This document shows, in pieces, positions 9,053 to 62,764 of a DNA stretch of 64,000 nucleotides (position 1 is its first letter; every line of letters begins with the position of its first letter). The notes below the pieces were generated by a model. It saw nothing but the letters and a program-made list of their open reading frames with translations. It was not told the origin of the DNA and searched no databases. Position numbers and translations under genes: made by a program. Source of the DNA: Bacteroidota bacterium (GTDB lineage: Bacteria > Bacteroidota > Bacteroidia > Chitinophagales > Chitinophagaceae); the NCBI GenBank assembly GCA_029561305.1, contig JAKQJG010000128.1:9318-73317 (forward strand), given 5' to 3'.

Positions 9053-10060
9053 TCAAGGTTTACCAAAAAGACTTTTATACAATTCGTTTTTGCAATATCG
9101 GTACAAAATGCCGCCTGTTAAAGCCAGCATGCCAATAAAACAGCCCCCTATAAAACCAATGATCATCAGTAAAATGATGGGCTGCTTTTTCACGTCGAAC
9201 GGTGCGGTGGGTTTATCCAGCATGGCAATGATCGGTGTCACTTTTTGCAGACGCCATACCGCTTCATCCCTGTTATTGATGTACATATCCCGCTGGCGGA
9301 GTACCCTTTCTTTTTCTGAAGCAACATTTACTTTGGGTATGGAATATTCCAATAATTCAGCCGGGGTAAACATCGTGCGTTGCTGCATGGCAATCGCCTT
9401 CCTGTCCTCAGAATTGATCATCTTTTGAAGCGAATCAATTTTATCGAGCGTGAAATTATAATCGTCCAGTGCTTTTTGTCTTTTCAATTCCACATAAAAT
9501 TTCGACAGCTTATCAGCAATAACATTGGAGATCGGTGTAATATAACTTTCGTTGGTGCCGGTATAATACAATTCAAGCACTCCGTTCTTATTCATCTTTG
9601 CAGTAATATCCGCTTTTATTATTTCAGAAGCTTTTGTCGCCAGCGCCAAACTGTCTTTTGGAACAGTGGTACCGCTGCTGTAAAAAGGCCTATGCTCGTT
9701 GATGTCATTAATGATAAGTTCACCAATGGTTTTATTTTCAAACGCTGACAGCCTGGTTGTTACAACCGACTCCCTGATGCGGCGGCTCTGTGCCAGTTCA
9801 ATGATATTGATCGTTGCCTCGCTGCTGAAGGATTTTGGCGCATCATTTAAACCCAGTATGCCCTGGAGCATATTGTTTGAAATGGTATTATCACTAGGTG
9901 ACAACAAAGGAAATAAAGTTGCTTTGGAAGTATAAGTGGTGCGTTTGCCATTGGCATATACAAAAGCCAATACGGCAAACAAAGCGCCTGCTGCCAGTAT
10001 AATTATCTTGTACCGCTTTAGTTTGTGTAATACTGATATTAATAATTCTTGTGAATTCAC
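9053..10060 (-). CDS. Polysaccharide chain-length determinant (Wzz/GumC-like)
   Basis: N- and C-terminal TM helices around a coiled periplasmic region; LDKPTAP motif; directly follows the Wza-like gene. Confidence 0.75.
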   Translation of the reverse strand: MNSQELLISVLHKLKRYKIIILAAGALFAVLAFVYANGKRTTYTSKATLFPLLSPSDNTISNNMLQGILGLNDAPKSFSSEATINIIELAQSRRIRESVVTTRLSAFENKTIGELIINDINEHRPFYSSGTTVPKDSLALATKASEIIKADITAKMNKNGVLELYYTGTNESYITPISNVIADKLSKFYVELKRQKALDDYNFTLDKIDSLQKMINSEDRKAIAMQQRTMFTPAELLEYSIPKVNVASEKERVLRQRDMYINNRDEAVWRLQKVTPIIAMLDKPTAPFDVKKQPIILLMIIGFIGGCFIGMLALTGGILYRYCKNELYKSLFGKP

Positions 10061-19324: not shown

Positions 19325-22153
19325 TCACAAAAACCGGCCTGTATGACTTTTCTTTTCCTTCTTCAGATCTTCCGGTTTGCCGGTAAATACAACATGACCA
19401 CCAGCATCGCCTGCTTCCGGACCAAGGTCAATTACCCAGTCTGCGCTCTTGATAACATCAGTATTGTGCTCAATTACCAGAATAGTATGCCCCTGCTCTA
19501 TTAATGCATTGAAAGAAGTCAATAATTTTTTTATATCATGAAAATGAAGCCCAGTAGTGGGTTCATCAAAGATGAAAAGAATTTGTCCGTTTGCCTTACC
19601 CTTACCGAGAAAAGAGGCCAGTTTCACCCTTTGTGCTTCTCCACCGGATAATGTATTGCTGGATTGCCCCAATTTTACATATCCAAGGCCAACATTACTT
19701 AATGGCTGTATCTTTCTTGCCACTTCAGGATCGCCTGCAAAAAAATCAATCGCCTCATCTACACTCATTTCCAATACATCATAAATGCTTTTCTCTTTGT
19801 AGGTAACTTCCAATACTTCCTCTTTGAATTTTTTTCCGCCGCAAACTTCACAGGTCAAATGCACATCTGCCAAAAACTGCATTTCCACTATTTGTTCACC
19901 CTCGCCACTGCAGGCATCACACCTTCCCCCTTCTACGTTAAAGGAAAAGTGCTTTGGCTGAAAGCCCCGTATCTTACTCAGCGGCTGCCTGCTAAACAGT
20001 TCCCTTATCTCATCATAGGCTTTTATGTAGGTAACGGGGTTGCTCCTCGAAGATTTGCCGATCGGGTTCTGGTCAACCATTTCAATTTGAGAAATAGCAT
20101 CTATATCACCTGTTATGGCTTTGTGAATGCCAGCTTTATCAACGCCCTCCCCTTTTATTTTCTGTAAAGCCGGGTATAAAATTTGTTTTACCAGGGTTGT
20201 TTTGCCACTGCCACTTACACCACTCACCACGCAAAGCAGACCCAATGGGAATTCGACTGAAATATTTTTTAAGTTGTTTTGTCTTGCGCCCTCTACTTTA
20301 ATACTTCGTTTCCATTTGCGCACATTTTTCGGCGGTTCTATTTTAAACACACCTGATAAGTATTTCCCAGTAAGACTTTTATCATTTGCAATCAGTTCAT
20401 CATAATTACCGGCGGCCACCACTTCACCGCCCAGGTGGCTGGCCAGTGGCCCCATGTCAATAATATGATCTGCCTCCCTCATCATCATCTCATCATGCTC
20501 CACTACTACAACAGTGTTGCCCAAATCCCTCAATTCTTTCAATACTGCAATTAACCGCTCTGTATCGCGGCTGTGCAGGCCAATACTTGGCTCATCTAAT
20601 ATATATAATGAATTGGTGAGATTACTGCCAAGACTCCTGGTTAGCTGGATACGCTGGCTTTCTCCACCACTCAATGAATTGGCCAGCCGGTTGAGCGTAA
20701 GATATCCCAAGCCAACATCCATCAATGTTTTAATCCGGTGATTTACTTCCAGCAGGATCCTTTTCGCCACCTGCCCGTCGTAAGCGGTTAATTCAAGTTT
20801 GCTAAACCATGTTTGCAGATCTCTTACTGGCATATTGCACAACTCCCCGATATGCTTTTCTGCTACCTTAACATACAGTGCTTCTTTGCGAAGGCGGTAA
20901 CCTTTGCAATCTGTACATTGTGTTCTGCCACGATACCGGCTTAGTAAAACCCGGTATTGTACTTTATATAAATTTTGTTCAACTTCTTTGAAGAAATCAT
21001 TTATCCCTAATACATTACTACGTCCTTCCCATAATTGCTGCAGTTGTTCTTCTGTAAGGTCAATAATGGGCTTATGAATAGGAAAACCAAAACTCTTTGC
21101 TCCTTTTATAAACTGTTCCCGCCACCAGCCCAGCTTTTCACCCTTCCAGGGAGCCACCGCTTCTTCGTACAGGCTTAACTGTTTGTTGGGGATGATCAGG
21201 TCTGCATCCAGGCCGAGTATTTGAGAAAAACCTTCGCAGGTGGGGCAGGCGCCAAAAGGATTATTAAACGAAAATAAATTGGGAACAGGCTCCTCAAACT
21301 GTATCCCATCCATTTCAAACTTATTACTGAAATGAAGCATTTGTTTCCCGTTCACTTCAACCAGCATTTCACCTTCACCTTCATAAAAAGCGGTACCAAC
21401 AGAATCTGAAATCCGGTGTATATCATCCTCATCAAACGCCTTTACAACAAGCCTGTCTACTAACAAAAACATTTTTTCAGGAAGAGACTTATCCGGCATC
21501 TCTAACAATTCTTCAATACGTGAAGGTTCTAAAGCCCCTCCTTTGGCCCCGTCCTGACGGGACGGGGAGGCCGTTCTTGAAAAACCCTTTTGCAGTAAAA
21601 TATTAAGCTCTTCCTTCGTATTACGCTTTGCATGTTTTTTGAAAGGCACAACAATCAGAACCCTGTCACCTTCGTTTAATTCCTTAATTGCTTTCACCAC
21701 ATCTGCCACATCATCTTTTTTTACCTCTCTTCCTGTTACGGGTGAAATAGTTTTCCCCACCCGTGCATATAGTAAGCGTAAGTAGTCGTAAATCTCCGTC
21801 ATACTGCCAACCGTGCTTCTTGGAGTACGGGTAATCACTTTTTGTTCTATAGCAATAGCAGGACACAAACCTTTGATATAATCCACATCCGGCTTATTCA
21901 TTCGTTGCATGAACTGCCGTGCATATGCACTCAGGCTTTCTGCATAACGGCGTTGTCCTTCTGCAAAAAGAGTATCGATCGTGAGCGAAGATTTGCCAGA
22001 ACCTGACACGCCTGTCACCACCACCAGCTTGTTTCGTGGTATCGTAACCGTTACATCCTTCAGGTTATGCACTCTTGCACCTTTTATCTGTATCCCGTCT
22101 GTTGCAGAAAGCGAAGATTTTGTAACAGTCTGTAATTTTTCCTTGGTTGCCAT
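19325..22153 (-). CDS. uvrA: Excinuclease ABC subunit A
   Basis: Two GVSGSGK Walker A motifs, two LSGGE signatures, Zn fingers; start MATKE at 22153 preferred to the ORF-track 22321. Confidence 0.97.
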   Translation of the reverse strand: MATKEKLQTVTKSSLSATDGIQIKGARVHNLKDVTVTIPRNKLVVVTGVSGSGKSSLTIDTLFAEGQRRYAESLSAYARQFMQRMNKPDVDYIKGLCPAIAIEQKVITRTPRSTVGSMTEIYDYLRLLYARVGKTISPVTGREVKKDDVADVVKAIKELNEGDRVLIVVPFKKHAKRNTKEELNILLQKGFSRTASPSRQDGAKGGALEPSRIEELLEMPDKSLPEKMFLLVDRLVVKAFDEDDIHRISDSVGTAFYEGEGEMLVEVNGKQMLHFSNKFEMDGIQFEEPVPNLFSFNNPFGACPTCEGFSQILGLDADLIIPNKQLSLYEEAVAPWKGEKLGWWREQFIKGAKSFGFPIHKPIIDLTEEQLQQLWEGRSNVLGINDFFKEVEQNLYKVQYRVLLSRYRGRTQCTDCKGYRLRKEALYVKVAEKHIGELCNMPVRDLQTWFSKLELTAYDGQVAKRILLEVNHRIKTLMDVGLGYLTLNRLANSLSGGESQRIQLTRSLGSNLTNSLYILDEPSIGLHSRDTERLIAVLKELRDLGNTVVVVEHDEMMMREADHIIDMGPLASHLGGEVVAAGNYDELIANDKSLTGKYLSGVFKIEPPKNVRKWKRSIKVEGARQNNLKNISVEFPLGLLCVVSGVSGSGKTTLVKQILYPALQKIKGEGVDKAGIHKAITGDIDAISQIEMVDQNPIGKSSRSNPVTYIKAYDEIRELFSRQPLSKIRGFQPKHFSFNVEGGRCDACSGEGEQIVEMQFLADVHLTCEVCGGKKFKEEVLEVTYKEKSIYDVLEMSVDEAIDFFAGDPEVARKIQPLSNVGLGYVKLGQSSNTLSGGEAQRVKLASFLGKGKANGQILFIFDEPTTGLHFHDIKKLLTSFNALIEQGHTILVIEHNTDVIKSADWVIDLGPEAGDAGGHVVFTGKPEDLKKEKKSHTGRFL
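21530..21572 (-). repeat. In-frame palindromic repeat inside uvrA (encodes ASPSRQDGAKGGAL)
   Basis: TAAAGCCCCTCCTT...GGGGAGGCC ends are identical to the metG copy at 49581-49614; internal hairpin CCCCGTCC-TGACG-GGACGGGG. Confidence 0.85.
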
Positions 22154-45100: not shown

Positions 45101-45715
45101 TCAATCATCTTTTTCAAAAGATCCTAAAAAGTCTGTGTTAAAGCCTTTTTGTGTAAGACCACCAGACTGATAACCACAATACATGACGGCTAGTTCTTTA
45201 TTACATAAAGTTCCATTTCTTTTTCCGATATAATCACAGTATGATGAATATACCCAATGCTCAGGCTGTTTCACTAAACCAGCTAGTACCGGATTTTGGT
45301 GTATATAATCAAAACAACGGAAGCAATAATCCTGTAAACTATAGCGATGCTTTACAACCCAATCAGATTCTGCAACATTTTTCGCTTTGGTTTTTTGCCG
45401 GAATAAAGAACCCGTTCGTTTATACCGCTTATTGAAAACCCTTGCATACCCACTAAGCAATTTCCGGACTCCATTTGTGAGTTTTTCGATTTCAAGACCA
45501 CCCTGCTTCATTTTAGCACAACTTGCCTCGCCAGTGTACACCAGTAAGTGAAAGTGATTTGGCATCAGGCACCAAGCGATAATTTCAGTATTACTTTGAA
45601 CCTGCGTTCTTAGCATACGGAGAAAAATCAGGTAATCTTCATCACAACTAAAAATTCCCTGGCGATTGTTTCCCTGGTTGTAAATGTGATAGATATTATT
45701 GGGAAGAAACTTCAT
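45101..45715 (-). CDS. REP-associated tyrosine transposase (RAYT, HUH/Y1)
   Basis: YHIYNQGNN, CLMPNHFHLL (HUH), YIHQNPV (catalytic Tyr), WVYSSY. Confidence 0.92.
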   Translation of the reverse strand: MKFLPNNIYHIYNQGNNRQGIFSCDEDYLIFLRMLRTQVQSNTEIIAWCLMPNHFHLLVYTGEASCAKMKQGGLEIEKLTNGVRKLLSGYARVFNKRYKRTGSLFRQKTKAKNVAESDWVVKHRYSLQDYCFRCFDYIHQNPVLAGLVKQPEHWVYSSYCDYIGKRNGTLCNKELAVMYCGYQSGGLTQKGFNTDFLGSFEKDD

Positions 45716-48385: not shown

Positions 48386-48417
48386 AAAAAACCACAACCG
48401 TTTACAGTTGTGGCTTT
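48386..48417 (-). terminator. Intrinsic terminator after metG
   Basis: CCACAAC/GTTGTGG stem with a T-run on the minus strand. Confidence 0.7.
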
Positions 48418-48437
48418 GCAAAAAAAATTAATCCTGT

Positions 48438-51029
48438 TTAACTGACACCACTTCCAGCATCAATCACCGATTCAGGGCTTACAAAATGCAATTTGCCGGT
48501 TTTATCTTCAGCCATCAATATCATGCCATTGCTTTCAATACCCCTCATTTTACGGGGAGCGAGGTTAGCCACTACAACAACCTGTTTACCAACAATAGTT
48601 TCGGGTTGGTAATGCATCGCAATACCGCTTACTACGGTCCTGGTTTCAAAACCCATGTCTATTTGCAGCTTTAATAACTTATCTGCTTTTTCTACTTTTC
48701 CGGCAGAAATAATTGTTCCGACTTTCAAATCGATCCTGGCAAAATCGTCGTAAACGATTTCGGGTTTTAAAGCCTCCCTGCCCTCCAAAGGAGGGTTCCT
48801 GGTGTCGGATAACTTCTTAGACTCCTCGACTTTCACAGGGACCAAGGTCCCTCCTTTGGAGGAATTTAGGGAGGCCCCCGCTTTTAATTTTTCTACTTGT
48901 GCCGCTATTTCTGCATCTTCAATTTTCCTGAATAGTAATTGTGGTTCTCTTAAGCTATAACCCACACTCAGCAAATTAATTTTACCAGCGTTATTCCAAT
49001 CCAGCATTTTATCCACCACTTTCATCATGTACAGCATTTTTTTGGCTGTGGTTGGTAAAAATGGATTGATAAGAATGGCGAGGTTGGCTGTTAACTGTAA
49101 GCAGAGATGCAAACAGTTGTCGATGCTTTTTTGAGCCTCCCTGCCCTCCAAAAGAGGGTTCTCGAAACCTGCAGTTGTTTGTTTCTTTTCGTTTAGCTTA
49201 GAAAGAATGGTATTTAAAACATAATCAGTCTTATTTAATACGTCATCGTTAGTAAACCGCAGTACTTCAAATCCAAACTTATTTAACTCTGCCGTCCTGA
49301 TCGCATCACTCAGTTTATTTTCCGGGATCTCATGTATCAATCCATCAACTTCAACAATAAGCTTTTGTGAAAGACAAACAAAATCTGCAATGTAGGTGCC
49401 AATGATATGTTGCCTTCTAAACTTAAAACTGTCCAGTTTTTTCCCTCTTACTATTTGCCATAATAAATCCTCCGCTTCTGTAGGATTCGACCTGTGCTCT
49501 TCAACAAATTTCTTCAGCAACCCATAAGTTACAGTATCCGCTGTTTGATATTCATAAGGACTGTTTGCTTTCGCAGAGTCTAAAGCCCCTCCTTCGGAGG
49601 GGTTTGGGGAGGCCACTTTCTTCGCTACAATCCATGGCTCTTTTTCCTGCATATACTTATTTCCCTTCCTGCTCAGGTCAATCACTTCAAACAAGGCATC
49701 TCTGAATTTATATTCCTCTAATAAACCTTCCACTTTCACTTTTGCATTTTCGATGTCTGCAATCAGCACTTTATCTTTTTCATCTAAAATATCTTCATGT
49801 AATTTTGGAACCTTGCCTCCGCATAGTTTATGCATCAATACCCATGTTCTATTCACAAAATTTCCAAAGATGCTTACCAGTTCACTGTTGTTCCTGTCCT
49901 GGAAATCCTTCCAGGTAAAATCATTATCCTTTGTCTCCGGTGCATTGGCACAGAGAACGTACCGGAGTACATCTTCACAACCTTCAAAGTCTTTGATGTA
50001 TTCGTTTACCCATACTGCCCAGTTGCGGCTGGTACTTACTTTTTCCCCTTCAATATTTAAAAACTCATTGGCAGGAACATTATCCGGCAAAGCAAATCCG
50101 CCATGTGCTTTCAACATCGCAGGGAAAATGATGCAATGAAAAACGATATTGTCTTTGCCAATAAAGTGAACCAGTTTTGTATCTTCTTTACACCAGTAGT
50201 CGGCCCATTTATCGGTCAGTTCCTTTGTTGCAGAGATATAACCGATCGGTGCGTCAAACCACACATACAATACTTTTCCTTCTGCATCCGGCAGCGGCAC
50301 TTTAATTCCCCAGTTGCTGTCCCTTGTCATGGCCCTGCTATGCAATCCGCTGTCGAGCCAGCTCTTGCATTGTCCATATACGTTGTTCTTCCATTCTTTG
50401 TGTCCTTCAATTATCCATTCTTTCAGCCACGGTTCATAATTCTGTAGTGGAAAATACCAATGCGTTGTTTTTTTCTTTACCGGTACCGCATCACTCAACG
50501 CACTTTTGGGATTGATCAGTTGCTCCGGCGATAGACTTGTTCCGCATTTTTCACACTGGTCGCCATAGGCATTTGGGTTGGCACAAACCGGGCAGGTGCC
50601 GGTGATATAACGATCGGCCAAAAACGTGTTTGTCTTTTCATCAAAATACTGCTCCGTTTCTTTCTCCTCAAACAAACCATCATCATACAGTTTCTTAAAA
50701 AATGCCGATGCTGTATCGTGATGTACTTTATTGGAGGTACGGGAATAGATATCAAACGAGATACCCATTTGCTCCATACTTTCTTTGATGATGGCATGAT
50801 AACGGTCAACCACCTGTTGCGGTGTGATGCCTTCCTTCATGGCACGGATGGTAATGGGCACACCATGCTCATCGCTGCCACCGATAAATTTCACGTCTTT
50901 CTTTTGTGCTCTTAAATAACGTACATAAATATCCGCAGGCAAATAACATCCTGCCAGGTGGCCAATATGTACCGGGCCATTGGCATAGGGAAGCGCTGCT
51001 GTAACTAAATATCTGGATGGATGGTTCAT
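48438..51029 (-). CDS. metG: Methionine--tRNA ligase carrying an in-frame DUF559 insert and repeat-derived linker
   Basis: [12 protein letters not shown], Zn knuckle, KVSTS (KMSKS), C-terminal Trbp111-like domain [15 protein letters not shown]; start MNHPS at 51029. Confidence 0.97.
48771..48876. repeat. In-frame inverted repeat doublet in the metG linker (miniature element)
   Basis: Plus strand GCCTCCCTGCCCTCCAAAGGAGGG (48772-48795) and minus strand GCCTCCCTAAATTCCTCCAAAGGAGGG (48849-48875), 53-bp spacer. Confidence 0.88.
49134..49614 (-). mobile_element. Repeat-flanked DUF559 (Vsr-like endonuclease) cassette inserted in frame in metG
   Basis: [30 protein letters not shown]...KLIVEVDG..H...D..RT..L...GF.VLRFTN between inverted repeats at 49581-49614 and 49134-49161. 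Confidence 0.85.
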
Positions 51030-51166
51030 TTTTTTGAATCTGTCTTTTGTGCTACTATTAAACATCGTTCTGTCACTTCCCGAAAGCATTCGGGATACTG
51101 GTACAACTACAGGCAACAAAACAACGGCTGCAAAAATACCTTAATTGAGCCCAACGAACAAACCAC

Positions 51167-51193
51167 AAAAAAGCCCCCAACAAATTGGGGGCT
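51167..51193 (-). terminator. Intrinsic terminator
   Basis: AGCCCCCAA-loop-TTGGGGGCT followed by a T-run on the minus strand. Confidence 0.8.
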
Positions 51194-51215
51194 CCATGAA
51201 AAACTGACCTCAAAG

Positions 51216-61900: not shown

Positions 61901-62764
61901 TCAACGCAGCAACAAACTATCCAGCTTTAATTTAAACAACGGATAGTCATTCAAATTACGATGCGTTCCTCCTTCAATGGTCACAAACTCATCGGTAACT
62001 TTTAAAACTTCTTTCAATCTACTGGCATTACGGTAAGGGATCACCCCATCATCTGTGCCATGAAAAATAGTGATGGGATACCTGATGCCACTTAAAAATT
62101 CGTACGTGGGGATTTTATAACTCGCCATCCGGCTGTTGGGGTAAATGGGTGCATAGCAATTGTACAGTGAAGGGATGCTGTAGTAAGGTGTTTCTAAGAT
62201 CAGCCGCTTTGCTTTACCGGCTGCTGCGGTATAAGCAGCGATGCCTGTTCCTAAAGATTTGCCATAAATAACAATGCTGTCGGCCGCATATTTTGAAAGG
62301 GCCAGTTTATACAATTGCGTTGCCTGTTCATACAGTATTTTTTCTGTTCTGTTACCTACGCTTTTTCCAAAACCCGGGAAGTCCCCCATCCATACCTCAT
62401 AGCCATGTTTGGTAAAATTATTTACAAACCTTACGTAACGTTTAATATTACCCCTGTTGCCGTGAAAGTAAAGAACCACACCTTTTCGTACGGAATCTTT
62501 TGGAAAAAACTGTACCAGGTTAACGGTATCTGTGTCATTCATGGGCAGGTCAACCTCTTTAAAAGGGATATCAAATTGCCAGGGCACAGTTCTTTCAATG
62601 GCTGTGGGGTGAAATAAAAATTTTTCCTGCAGGTAAAACAAGGCGATGCCAATAGCAGAGTACAGCAATACAATTACTTTGATCCAGCGAAACAGTTTTC
62701 GGCCTAACCCTCTTTCTCCCTTCCCTAAAGGAAGGGAGCGGTGCTTCAAATCTTTATTAATCAT
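61901..62764 (-). CDS. Alpha/beta hydrolase (ABHD13/17-like)
   Basis: YFHGN, GKSLG nucleophile, FHGTDD, GGTH. Confidence 0.9.
   Translation of the reverse strand: MINKDLKHRSLPLGKGERGLGRKLFRWIKVIVLLYSAIGIALFYLQEKFLFHPTAIERTVPWQFDIPFKEVDLPMNDTDTVNLVQFFPKDSVRKGVVLYFHGNRGNIKRYVRFVNNFTKHGYEVWMGDFPGFGKSVGNRTEKILYEQATQLYKLALSKYAADSIVIYGKSLGTGIAAYTAAAGKAKRLILETPYYSIPSLYNCYAPIYPNSRMASYKIPTYEFLSGIRYPITIFHGTDDGVIPYRNASRLKEVLKVTDEFVTIEGGTHRNLNDYPLFKLKLDSLLLR
62701..62739. repeat. In-frame palindromic repeat in the hydrolase N-terminus (encodes SLPLGKGERGLG)
   Basis: GGCCTAACCC-TCTTT-CTCCCTTCC-CTAAA-GGAAGGGAG-C; same tail-plus-hairpin layout as the metG repeats. Confidence 0.7.

Follow-up and report, generated by a model that had tools for sequence, protein, structure and literature searches.

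A DUF559 nuclease cassette between inverted three-part repeat modules, in frame within the metG gene of a Bacteroidota bacterium: a probable mobile or once-mobile element

The 64,000-nucleotide stretch of DNA that was analysed here (the window; positions 9,318 to 73,317 of contig JAKQJG010000128.1, assembly GCA_029561305.1) carries metG, the gene for methionyl-tRNA synthetase (MetRS). This essential gene is interrupted in frame by a block that encodes a DUF559 domain, a Vsr-like PD-(D/E)xK nuclease core, and that is bounded on both sides by a repeat module in inverted orientation. As judged from sequence comparisons, the most likely interpretation of this block, referred to as cassette A, is that of an element which is or once was mobile and which remains in the protein into which it was inserted. 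On balance, and with confidence only a little above even, we regard it as one copy of a family of small selfish elements that would consist of a DUF559 block between inverted triplex-type modules, and whose mechanism is in part a reconstruction.

An in-frame insert in metG that is absent from the closest relatives

The initial annotation of the window had placed about 160 extra codons in metG directly after the residues EPWIVAKK, without a frameshift, and had given the insert as 49134-49614. When the bounds were set as 5'-GGCC...GGC-3', the insert was located at 49135-49614 and measured exactly 160 codons; the proposed end thus stood, while the interval had been one base too long at its start. 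The open reading frame (ORF) list and the sequence agreed that metG reads through the insert with zero stops and zero frameshifts, and the coding block has neither a start nor a stop codon of its own. The 160 codons count as extra because relatives carry empty alleles. With a MetRS protein query, metG orthologues were detected in 40 of 41 related genomes, and the insert region could be recovered in 20 other species of the same genus. The site was empty in 18 of these and filled at the same codon in the remaining two (G022 and G011). The empty sites included those of the three closest species (G009, G006 and G020), whose MetRS proteins are about 90% identical to the present one, as well as those of 15 further species. 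The search for empty alleles that had been suggested at the outset therefore showed that the insert is not present in all relatives. No filled site was found in the genomes that were sampled from the order's other families.

By Pfam, MetRS consists of a tRNA-synt_1g domain (residues 7-395, E 3e-155), the DUF559 domain (507-612), an Anticodon_3 domain that is split by the insert, and a C-terminal tRNA_bind domain. The insertion site corresponds to a surface loop between two helices of the anticodon-binding domain. In an AlphaFold2 model based on 48 MetRS sequences, with a mean predicted local distance difference test (pLDDT) score of 75, the host helices on either side (465-473 and 628-654) were intact, and the DUF559 core formed a separate folded unit with a block pLDDT of about 60-86. 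The stretches encoded by the modules (474-498 and 617-630) and the region of a second, smaller insert (714-764; cassette B, see below) scored below 50, and both are modelled as flexible linkers. The Pro/Gly-rich peptides encoded by the modules would serve this purpose.

The insert starts with the residues V-A-S-P and ends with E-G-R-E-A, which is followed by the host residue Q. Its junctions lack Cys, Ser or Thr at the N-terminal end and His-Asn plus a nucleophile at the C-terminal end, and Pfam detected no Hint/intein domain in the insert. Together these findings exclude an intein, in agreement with the initial annotation, which had noted the missing intein signature. A group I or group II intron was excluded as well, by an Rfam scan of 48400-51200 that returned no intron family at E values up to 1 and by the continuous reading frame. 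Since neither kind of splicing signature is present, the insert is almost certainly translated and likely retained in the enzyme.

We also considered whether the insert could be an assembly chimera or an annotation artefact of a fragmented metagenome-assembled genome, and we regard this as hardly credible. The genome (G000; 4.83 Mb) is indeed distributed over 443 contigs, and a short contig carries a MetRS fragment of foreign type. However, cassette A lies midway in a 77-kb contig, and dozens of independent assemblies from different sources have the same junctions at the same codon. The foreign-type fragment (contig C7, 2988 nt) encodes the C-terminal 409 aa of a MetRS of another type, which is 33% identical; it is probably a contamination of the bin rather than a second or backup metG, because the contig is very short. 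The coordinates of the features are collected in Table 1.

Table 1. Location of metG, its two inserts and their parts, and of comparable gene-less module pairs elsewhere in the genome
Feature	Location	Strand	Description
metG (MetRS)	48438..51029	minus	Host gene; 863 aa counted from MNHPSRY; essential
Cassette A	49135..49614	minus	480 nt = 160 codons in frame: left module, linker, DUF559 core, linker, right module
Left end module	49585..49614	minus	G-GCCTCCCC-AAA-CCCCTCC-GAA-GGAGGGG-C: third segment, spacer, pyrimidine arm, loop, purine arm
DUF559 / Vsr-like PD-(D/E)xK nuclease core	49194..49511	minus	MetRS residues 507-612; Pfam PF04480
Right end module	49135..49158	minus	CCCTC(T)-TTT-GGAGGG-CA-GGGAGG-C; encodes NPLLEGREA; repeat family D3
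Cassette B	48772..48876	minus	105 nt = 35 in-frame codons; located in the linker that precedes the tRNA-binding domain; no nuclease core
Gene-less module pair	contig C299:8783-8941		In frame; apparent DNA polymerase I, between exonuclease domains
Gene-less module pair	contig C295:5380-5521		In frame; apparent RlmD-like rRNA methyltransferase

The nuclease core is complete and under purifying selection

The core of cassette A scored 114.8 bits (E 2.2e-33) against PF04480, for which the curated cut-off is 20.6, and covered profile positions 5-108 (104 of 109). It was the sole domain that Pfam found in the cassette; neither an HUH Y1 transposase nor any other transposase domain was detected. The closest solved structure was that of a DUF559 protein (PDB 3HRL, E 8e-22), and the homing nuclease I-Bth0305I (3R3P) matched only weakly (E 0.05). 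Across 14 aligned, diverse cassettes taken from six host proteins, the residues E67, D69, H73 and D82 (EDxHD) and the upstream D56 were invariant, and the predicted catalytic residues are all present in this metG copy, within or at IADF, EVDG, H and SD. This bore out the earlier description of a complete DUF559/Vsr-like domain with intact putative catalytic residues. Furthermore, the pairwise ratio of nonsynonymous to synonymous divergence (dN/dS) was about 0.06-0.12 for the whole insert including the linkers, which indicates that the protein is under purifying selection.

In a survey of PD-(D/E)xK nucleases, Vsr, DUF559 and an intron homing nuclease were placed in one clade, and lateral transfer was not recorded (PMC3424549). 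The literature that we searched on DUF559 yielded neither a published account of in-frame DUF559 cassettes nor a characterised member of the family.

The end modules have a three-part, mirror-repeat architecture

The left end, read on the minus strand from 49614 down to 49585, is GGCCTCCCCAAACCCCTCCGAAGGAGGGGC, and the right end, read on the plus strand over 49135-49158, is GCCTCCCTGCCCTCCAAAAGAGGG; the right end is an imperfect inverse of the left. The initial annotation had described these ends as palindromic inverted repeats. The sequences that it quoted are present, but they are not plain palindromes: each end consists of three parts, in that the pyrimidine and purine arms are joined by a third segment, a mirror image of the purine arm and not its complement. 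This is the published BoxC/TMECO architecture. The left module has about 12 similar copies in this genome. Compared with the family consensus CCCTCC, which was drawn from related cassettes, the right module shows decay at one position (C to T).

Support for the three-part architecture came from 80 related DNA loci. Their arms occur as CCCTCC, CCCCTCC, CCCCCC, CCCTTCCC, CCCTCTCC and other variants, and the third segment co-varies with the arms. Of the 48 distinct ends with asymmetric arms, 31 fitted the mirror register better and 4 the direct one, and 13 were ties. Opposite an A of the arm, the third segment has A in 46 cases and T in 11, and only rarely C or G. This pattern fits the rules for purine-motif triplexes (G.G-C, A.A-T, T.A-T). 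The end modules thus have the "intrastrand triplex" architecture of BoxC/TMECO and may be able to form the corresponding triads.

The E. coli TMECO oligonucleotide has been shown by circular dichroism and nuclear magnetic resonance to form a triplex in vitro (Holder et al. 2015, PMC4666352), while the in vivo footprint was negative or ambiguous. The same report states that TMECO is always intergenic, and no mobility function or enzyme partner was found nearby (PMC4666352). The modules described here share with the BoxC/PIT/TMECO repeats of E. coli and other bacteria the order of pyrimidine arm, loop, purine arm, spacer and mirroring purine third segment, with A or T opposite A. In contrast to the intergenic BoxC/TMECO, for which no enzyme partner was found, they stand on either side of a nuclease gene and are often located in frame within genes. 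Some of them are close to TMECO in sequence as well, TMECO being taken here as the sequence implied by the four-G-to-C control oligonucleotide in PMC4666352: one related locus (L101) reads CCCTCTCC-TTT-GGAGAGGG-TTT-GGGTGAGG, and the modules flanking the DUF559 gene on contig C111 of the present genome are likewise near the implied sequence. In E. coli K-12 itself, the DUF559 gene ycjD (L114; NC_000913.3, 1351030-1351830) has a decayed CCCTCTCCC hairpin at its end. Downstream of the gene come first a duplicated piece of its 3' end and then, at a distance of about 170 nt, a canonical TMECO/BoxC (CCCCTCGCCCCTCTGGGGAGAGGGTTAGGGTGAGGGG).

C/G-rich modules of this kind cannot encode stop codons and are translated as Pro-Pro...Gly-Gly, which explains their tolerance in protein loops.

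Modules, solo copies and gene-less derivatives in the genome

The genome contains four other DUF559 loci, including those on contigs C111 and C2 and a gene that is split across C332 and C412. All four have modules of this architecture on both sides, each locus with a sequence subtype of its own. The question whether other DUF559 genes carry such repeats, which had been raised with the initial annotation, was thereby answered positively for every other DUF559 gene of the genome. Some of the DUF559 genes with modules are free-standing, between genes. A scan of the genome for the three-part pattern returned 63 modules, compared to none in the shuffled genome, and the modules outnumber the DUF559 genes by roughly 63 to 5. 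The abundant module subtypes match the flanks of the resident DUF559 genes. Solo and gene-less copies are dispersed, many of them outside genes, and 18 of the 63 modules lie inside long open frames. When the host genes of these in-frame modules were assigned by reading the translated frames, without a profile search, the frames mostly resembled ordinary genes. A gene-less left-right pair is present both in DNA polymerase I and in an RlmD-like methyltransferase; the others were chorismate synthase, an EPSP-synthase-like enzyme, RtcB, an Lhr-type helicase, alpha-2-macroglobulin, a histidine kinase and a UxaA-like dehydratase.

The gene-less pairs on contigs C299 and C295 measure about 140-160 nt and represent the same type of element as cassette B of metG. 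Cassette B emerged from a repeat search, in which the ends of cassette A recurred 738 and 363 nt further along the gene. Its left end plus 17 subterminal bases is 79% identical over 47 nt (family D1), and its right end is 91% identical over 34 nt (D3); the protein region that includes it (residues 714-764) is predicted to be disordered. With its shared ends and subterminal sequence, cassette B resembles a gene-less derivative of the kind known from miniature inverted-repeat transposable elements (MITEs). A conventional transposon or MITE with terminal inverted repeats, a target duplication and a transposase was considered as a candidate in its own right and rejected; terminal inverted repeats and a gene-less derivative are present, though neither the duplication nor the transposase was found.

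These numbers invite the idea that the modules are themselves the mobile or unstable units, spreading by slippage, template switching or gene conversion, and that the DUF559 gene is a trapped passenger or a host nuclease, with the metG copy as an old, immobile relic. The excess of modules over DUF559 genes fits this idea. So do the composition of the ends, where one cassette often bears left and right modules of unlike subtype and extra modules stand in tandem at the borders, the age of all copies, the variable length of the metG loop among relatives, and the report that ties TMECO sites to genome instability without a mobility gene nearby in E. coli (PMC4666352). In view of the mixed end subtypes and tandem ends we keep this explanation alive, and yet we consider it quite unlikely. 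Every DUF559 gene examined, in this genome and at the 80 related loci, lies between two inverted modules, which is hard to attain by chance trapping. Moreover, strong purifying selection acts on a domain that has no start codon of its own, the subfamilies of the modules correspond to those that flank the resident DUF559 genes, and E. coli ycjD, also a DUF559 gene, has a TMECO beside the duplicated fragment of its 3' end.

We compared the proposed DUF559 element with REPtrons, which combine repetitive extragenic palindromic (REP) sequences with a REP-associated tyrosine transposase (RAYT). In both cases, an enzyme gene is located between inverted copies of a structured repeat, the solo copies are far more numerous than the gene, and the repeat subfamilies match the flanks of the resident gene. 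In contrast, the REPtron enzyme is an HUH Y1 tyrosine transposase and its repeats are simple REP hairpins, whereas the enzyme here is a PD-(D/E)xK Vsr-like nuclease and the repeats are of the triplex type, with many copies, including the enzyme gene, translated inside host proteins. The initial annotation had proposed a REPtron-like selfish cassette. Its anatomy was confirmed by the inverted, dispersed repeats and their excess over about five DUF559 genes; as for its spread, the interpretation was supported in part only, given the homing-like reuse of the same loops (see below). Rickettsia palindromic elements (RPEs), which Ogata and colleagues reportedly described in 2000, are said to encode no protein and to belong to another sequence family and another lineage. 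We know of no enzyme partner for RPEs. In contrast to RPEs, the autonomous form of the present element carries a nuclease domain.

Related cassettes recur at the same loops of unrelated proteins

The cassette region was searched against 5.8 billion proteins, limited to lengths of 475-1510 aa and to E values up to 1e-5. This search yielded 1203 proteins with a related cassette. The hosts are MetRS (two sites), MetH (two sites), CinA/PncC, adenine deaminase, IleRS (two sites) and LeuRS (two sites). Every cassette is bounded by module-encoded peptides, for instance ASLPSKGGF on the left and NPPSGGRGA on the right, and the insertion points are loops that directly adjoin highly conserved motifs; one of the MetH sites lies directly before the B12-binding motif GDVHDIGKN. 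At the MetRS site of cassette A, the cassettes of other MetRS proteins are 78-92% identical. At the DNA level, nearly all cores of the 80 related loci are located within open frames of 580-1470 aa and are flanked by modules. The second metG site is exemplified by two of the related genomes (G001 and G012), in which a DUF559 block follows DLDWGIKVP.

A motif common to the target sites was not found; the termini are 5'-GCC...GGC-3' and the left flank is A-rich. Searches of phage and plasmid records revealed no obvious carrier vehicle. Only two of 50,697 phage records matched the core, and these weakly, and the 40 matching plasmid records all had less than 60% identity and were mostly very large replicons.

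The recurrence at fixed positions could be explained by homing pure and simple. According to this explanation, the nuclease cuts the empty metG loop, double-strand-break repair copies the cassette into it, and the modules are mere stop-free Pro/Gly linkers. The same two loops are indeed filled in divergent host clades, the sites adjoin conserved motifs such as GDVHDIGKN in MetH, as is typical of homing elements, and cassettes of one site are mostly closest to each other. In addition, the linkers are predicted to be disordered and the fold is related to that of the homing nuclease I-Bth0305I (PMC3239194, PMC2677866), although that match was weak (E 0.05). A linker, however, has no need of a mirror third segment that co-varies with the arm, and this segment is conserved across all host genes. 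Neither would homing account for the dispersal of solo modules and gene-less cassettes, which in many cases lie outside genes, or for the same modules at free-standing, intergenic DUF559 genes, and co-conversion tracts were not found. We consider homing as the sole explanation rather unlikely.

The comparison with established in-frame and homing elements leads to a similar distinction. All Vsr-like homing nucleases described so far are encoded by free-standing genes, located in group I introns or between the halves of split inteins (PMC2677866, PMC3239194). The EDxHD homing endonucleases of this type, such as I-Bth0305I, share with the present cassettes the catalytic fold, the E-D-H-D residues, the residence in conserved housekeeping genes, the patchy distribution and the occurrence at the same site in different lineages. 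They have extra DNA-binding domains, however, and splicing of RNA or protein restores the gene in which they reside, whereas the present cassettes lack a splicing element as well as start and stop codons of their own, and their nuclease forms part of the host protein. Inteins with homing endonucleases are likewise selfish in-frame inserts in essential genes near conserved motifs, but they differ by the Hint domain and the splice-junction residues that are missing here. The position of the present insert in a loop beside a conserved motif, rather than inside it, is as expected for an insert that is never removed.

A further explanation is that the DUF559 fold confers a useful activity on MetRS and the other hosts, such as nucleic-acid binding, and is kept for that reason. 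The purifying selection on the insert is compatible with this, several of the hosts handle tRNA (MetRS, IleRS and LeuRS), and the related, Vsr-like RAP/FASTK domains are reported to bind RNA (PMC11879112). However, the closest relatives do well without the insert, and the same cassette occurs in the unrelated enzymes MetH, CinA and adenine deaminase. Furthermore, the repeat modules are always present and also occur alone and between genes, and it is the nuclease catalytic residues that are conserved. An adaptive fusion is, in our opinion, highly unlikely.

Several individual alleles deserve mention here. Some MetRS genes (P0001, P0002 / L085) carry two full DUF559 cassettes, one per site, and these copies are about 60-65% identical. 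In the filled metG of G011 (L016 / L038), a TAA inside the DUF559 core of the site-1 cassette causes metG to read as two ORFs, and a site-2 cassette at another locus (L110) has a stop directly after the core. These broken genes could represent a working two-piece MetRS, pseudogenes or sequencing errors. The empty second-site loops of one host clade (clade B, defined below) are two codons longer than those of the outgroups and read P..xxGG. One of them (L019, the metG of G018) is a perfect small hairpin, CCGCCGGC-TTTA-GCCGGCGG (CCGCCGGCTTTAGCCGGCGG), an observation that was made post hoc and is not relied on. Such longer or hairpin loops could be footprints of lost cassettes or of solo hairpins.

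Descent of the cassettes suggests lateral spread between host lineages

In the host tree, the genus splits into clade A, to which the present species (G000) and its relatives belong, and clade B. Alleles with a filled site 1, alleles with a filled site 2 and empty alleles are interleaved in both clades. Site-1 carriers from different clades have a mean host identity of 69% and a mean cassette identity of 77% (up to 92%), while for carriers within clade A the means are 85% for the host and 75% for the cassette. As for the present cassette, it is 92% identical to that of P0019, the host protein being 68% identical, and 74% identical to that of P0061, which is among the carriers with the closest hosts (86%). 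In line with these values, the cassette dN amounted to about 0.09-0.15 regardless of the host dN (0.04-0.28).

A tree of full-length site-1 cassettes contained well-supported branches that mix the host clades, and the clade-A cassettes were grouped together in none of the bootstrap trees. Carriers from both host clades have in common a composite left end, with a gene-less mini-element ahead of the core. Cassettes of one site are mostly each other's nearest relatives. Three clade-A site-2 cassettes nest among site-1 cassettes, which would mean that jumps between sites occur occasionally. Taken together, the sequence comparisons indicate that lateral spread into the same metG site is likely.

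Partnership of nuclease and repeats as the preferred model

We propose a partnership of nuclease and repeat as the best single model, because the association of DUF559 with the modules extends across phyla and host genes, because the module subtypes match, and because the many solo and gene-less copies mirror REP/RAYT. A homing-like, site-specific component is added to this model since the same loops beside conserved motifs are reused; that the two metG loops are occupied again and again in divergent lineages speaks for homing-like spread no less than for REP-like scattering. The nuclease would act on the structured end modules, or on DNA that bears them, and thereby copy the element, in a manner that would resemble REP/RAYT or IS200-type systems, which recognise folded ends. 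Other lineages would acquire the element at the same loop through homing-like, site-specific insertion or recombination, and jumps to new loops would be rare. The copy in this genome would be old, with slightly decayed ends, and need not be active now; indeed, this metG copy appears old, and nothing points to recent activity.

Several findings speak against the partnership model and have to be set against its support. Firstly, in the empty alleles of the genus the loop is longer by 5-10 codons (AK-ITGEDGKPSKE-AQ or AK-TLDTNPDN-QK), while all filled alleles read AKxx-cassette-(A)QK and have the length of the outgroups, the length of the site-1 loop being variable among relatives. The filled allele lacks these 5-10 codons and thus did not arise by simple insertion into the present-day empty sequence, a point that had escaped the initial annotation, as had the three-part ends and cassette B at 48772-48876. 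Secondly, no target-site duplication was detected, neither at the junctions of filled versus empty alleles nor in 64 flank pairs. Thirdly, co-conversion tracts were found neither in a pair of filled and empty alleles that are 93-94% identical (L032 vs L017), where divergence was not in excess by the site, nor in the comparison of the present genome with clades A and B, where its flanks stay clade-A-like. Fourthly, an approximately unbiased (AU) test did not reject the monophyly of the clade-A cassettes (p 0.195 for 119 columns, p 0.142 for 176 columns). Lateral transfer is for this reason suggested and not proven. None of the copies is near-identical to another, and the synonymous divergence (dS) is saturated, ranging from 1.1 to above 3 in every pair, so that no recent transfer can be demonstrated. 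Fifthly, by DNA folding, the plain hairpin energy of the four metG end modules was no better than that of shuffled sequences (z -1.7 to +0.2); the argument for a triplex consequently rests on the covariation. Finally, the mixed end subtypes and tandem modules fit modules that move or convert by themselves, with the nuclease possibly as a passenger. It may be added that the short empty loops (xNPxN) have CAAACCCC-like bases in common with the left module, which is suggestive, although the observation is post hoc and was not relied on.

A bolder version of the partnership model is put forward here only tentatively. DUF559 nucleases might be the missing protein partners of the BoxC/PIT/TMECO repeats, and the arrangement module-DUF559-module might constitute an autonomous mobile element that has not been described before. 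In this version, the Vsr-fold nuclease would recognise folded DNA ends composed of a hairpin and a third strand. The element, which has no expression signals, would gain expression and immunity to deletion by residing, unspliced, in the loops of essential proteins. Mobilisation in trans would extend to solo modules and gene-less derivatives, which would seed Pro/Gly-rich loops in many proteins. If true, this would add a third way, besides introns and inteins, for a nuclease gene to reside in essential genes.

If the cassette moves by means of its own nuclease, this would provide an enzyme and a life cycle for BoxC/TMECO, repeats that have been studied biophysically without a known origin. It would likewise provide a function for the large, uncharacterised DUF559 family, to which E. 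coli YcjD belongs. It would further mean a splicing-free strategy of persistence for selfish nuclease genes in essential genes, and a natural origin for domains and loops inserted into housekeeping enzymes. A small structure-specific nuclease could have practical interest as well. Even if cassette A is an old, tolerated relic, annotation pipelines should flag such inserts, which inflate or split essential genes and give rise to misleading "fusion" labels.

Other repeats and repeat-associated genes in the window

Two further modules were observed in the window. The one at 21530-21572 (TAAAGCCCCTCCTTTGGCCCCGTCCTGACGGGACGGGGAGGCC) looks like a module that was broken by a second hairpin, and the one at 62701-62739 (CTCCCTTCCCTAAAGGAAGGGAG, with an upstream pyrimidine tract) belongs to a different subtype. 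In addition, a minus-strand ORF of 204 aa at 45101-45715, just downstream of a fadN-like gene, is RAYT-like and contains the HUH-type motif HFHLL. The genome would then host both a RAYT/REP system and the system of DUF559 and triplex-type modules.

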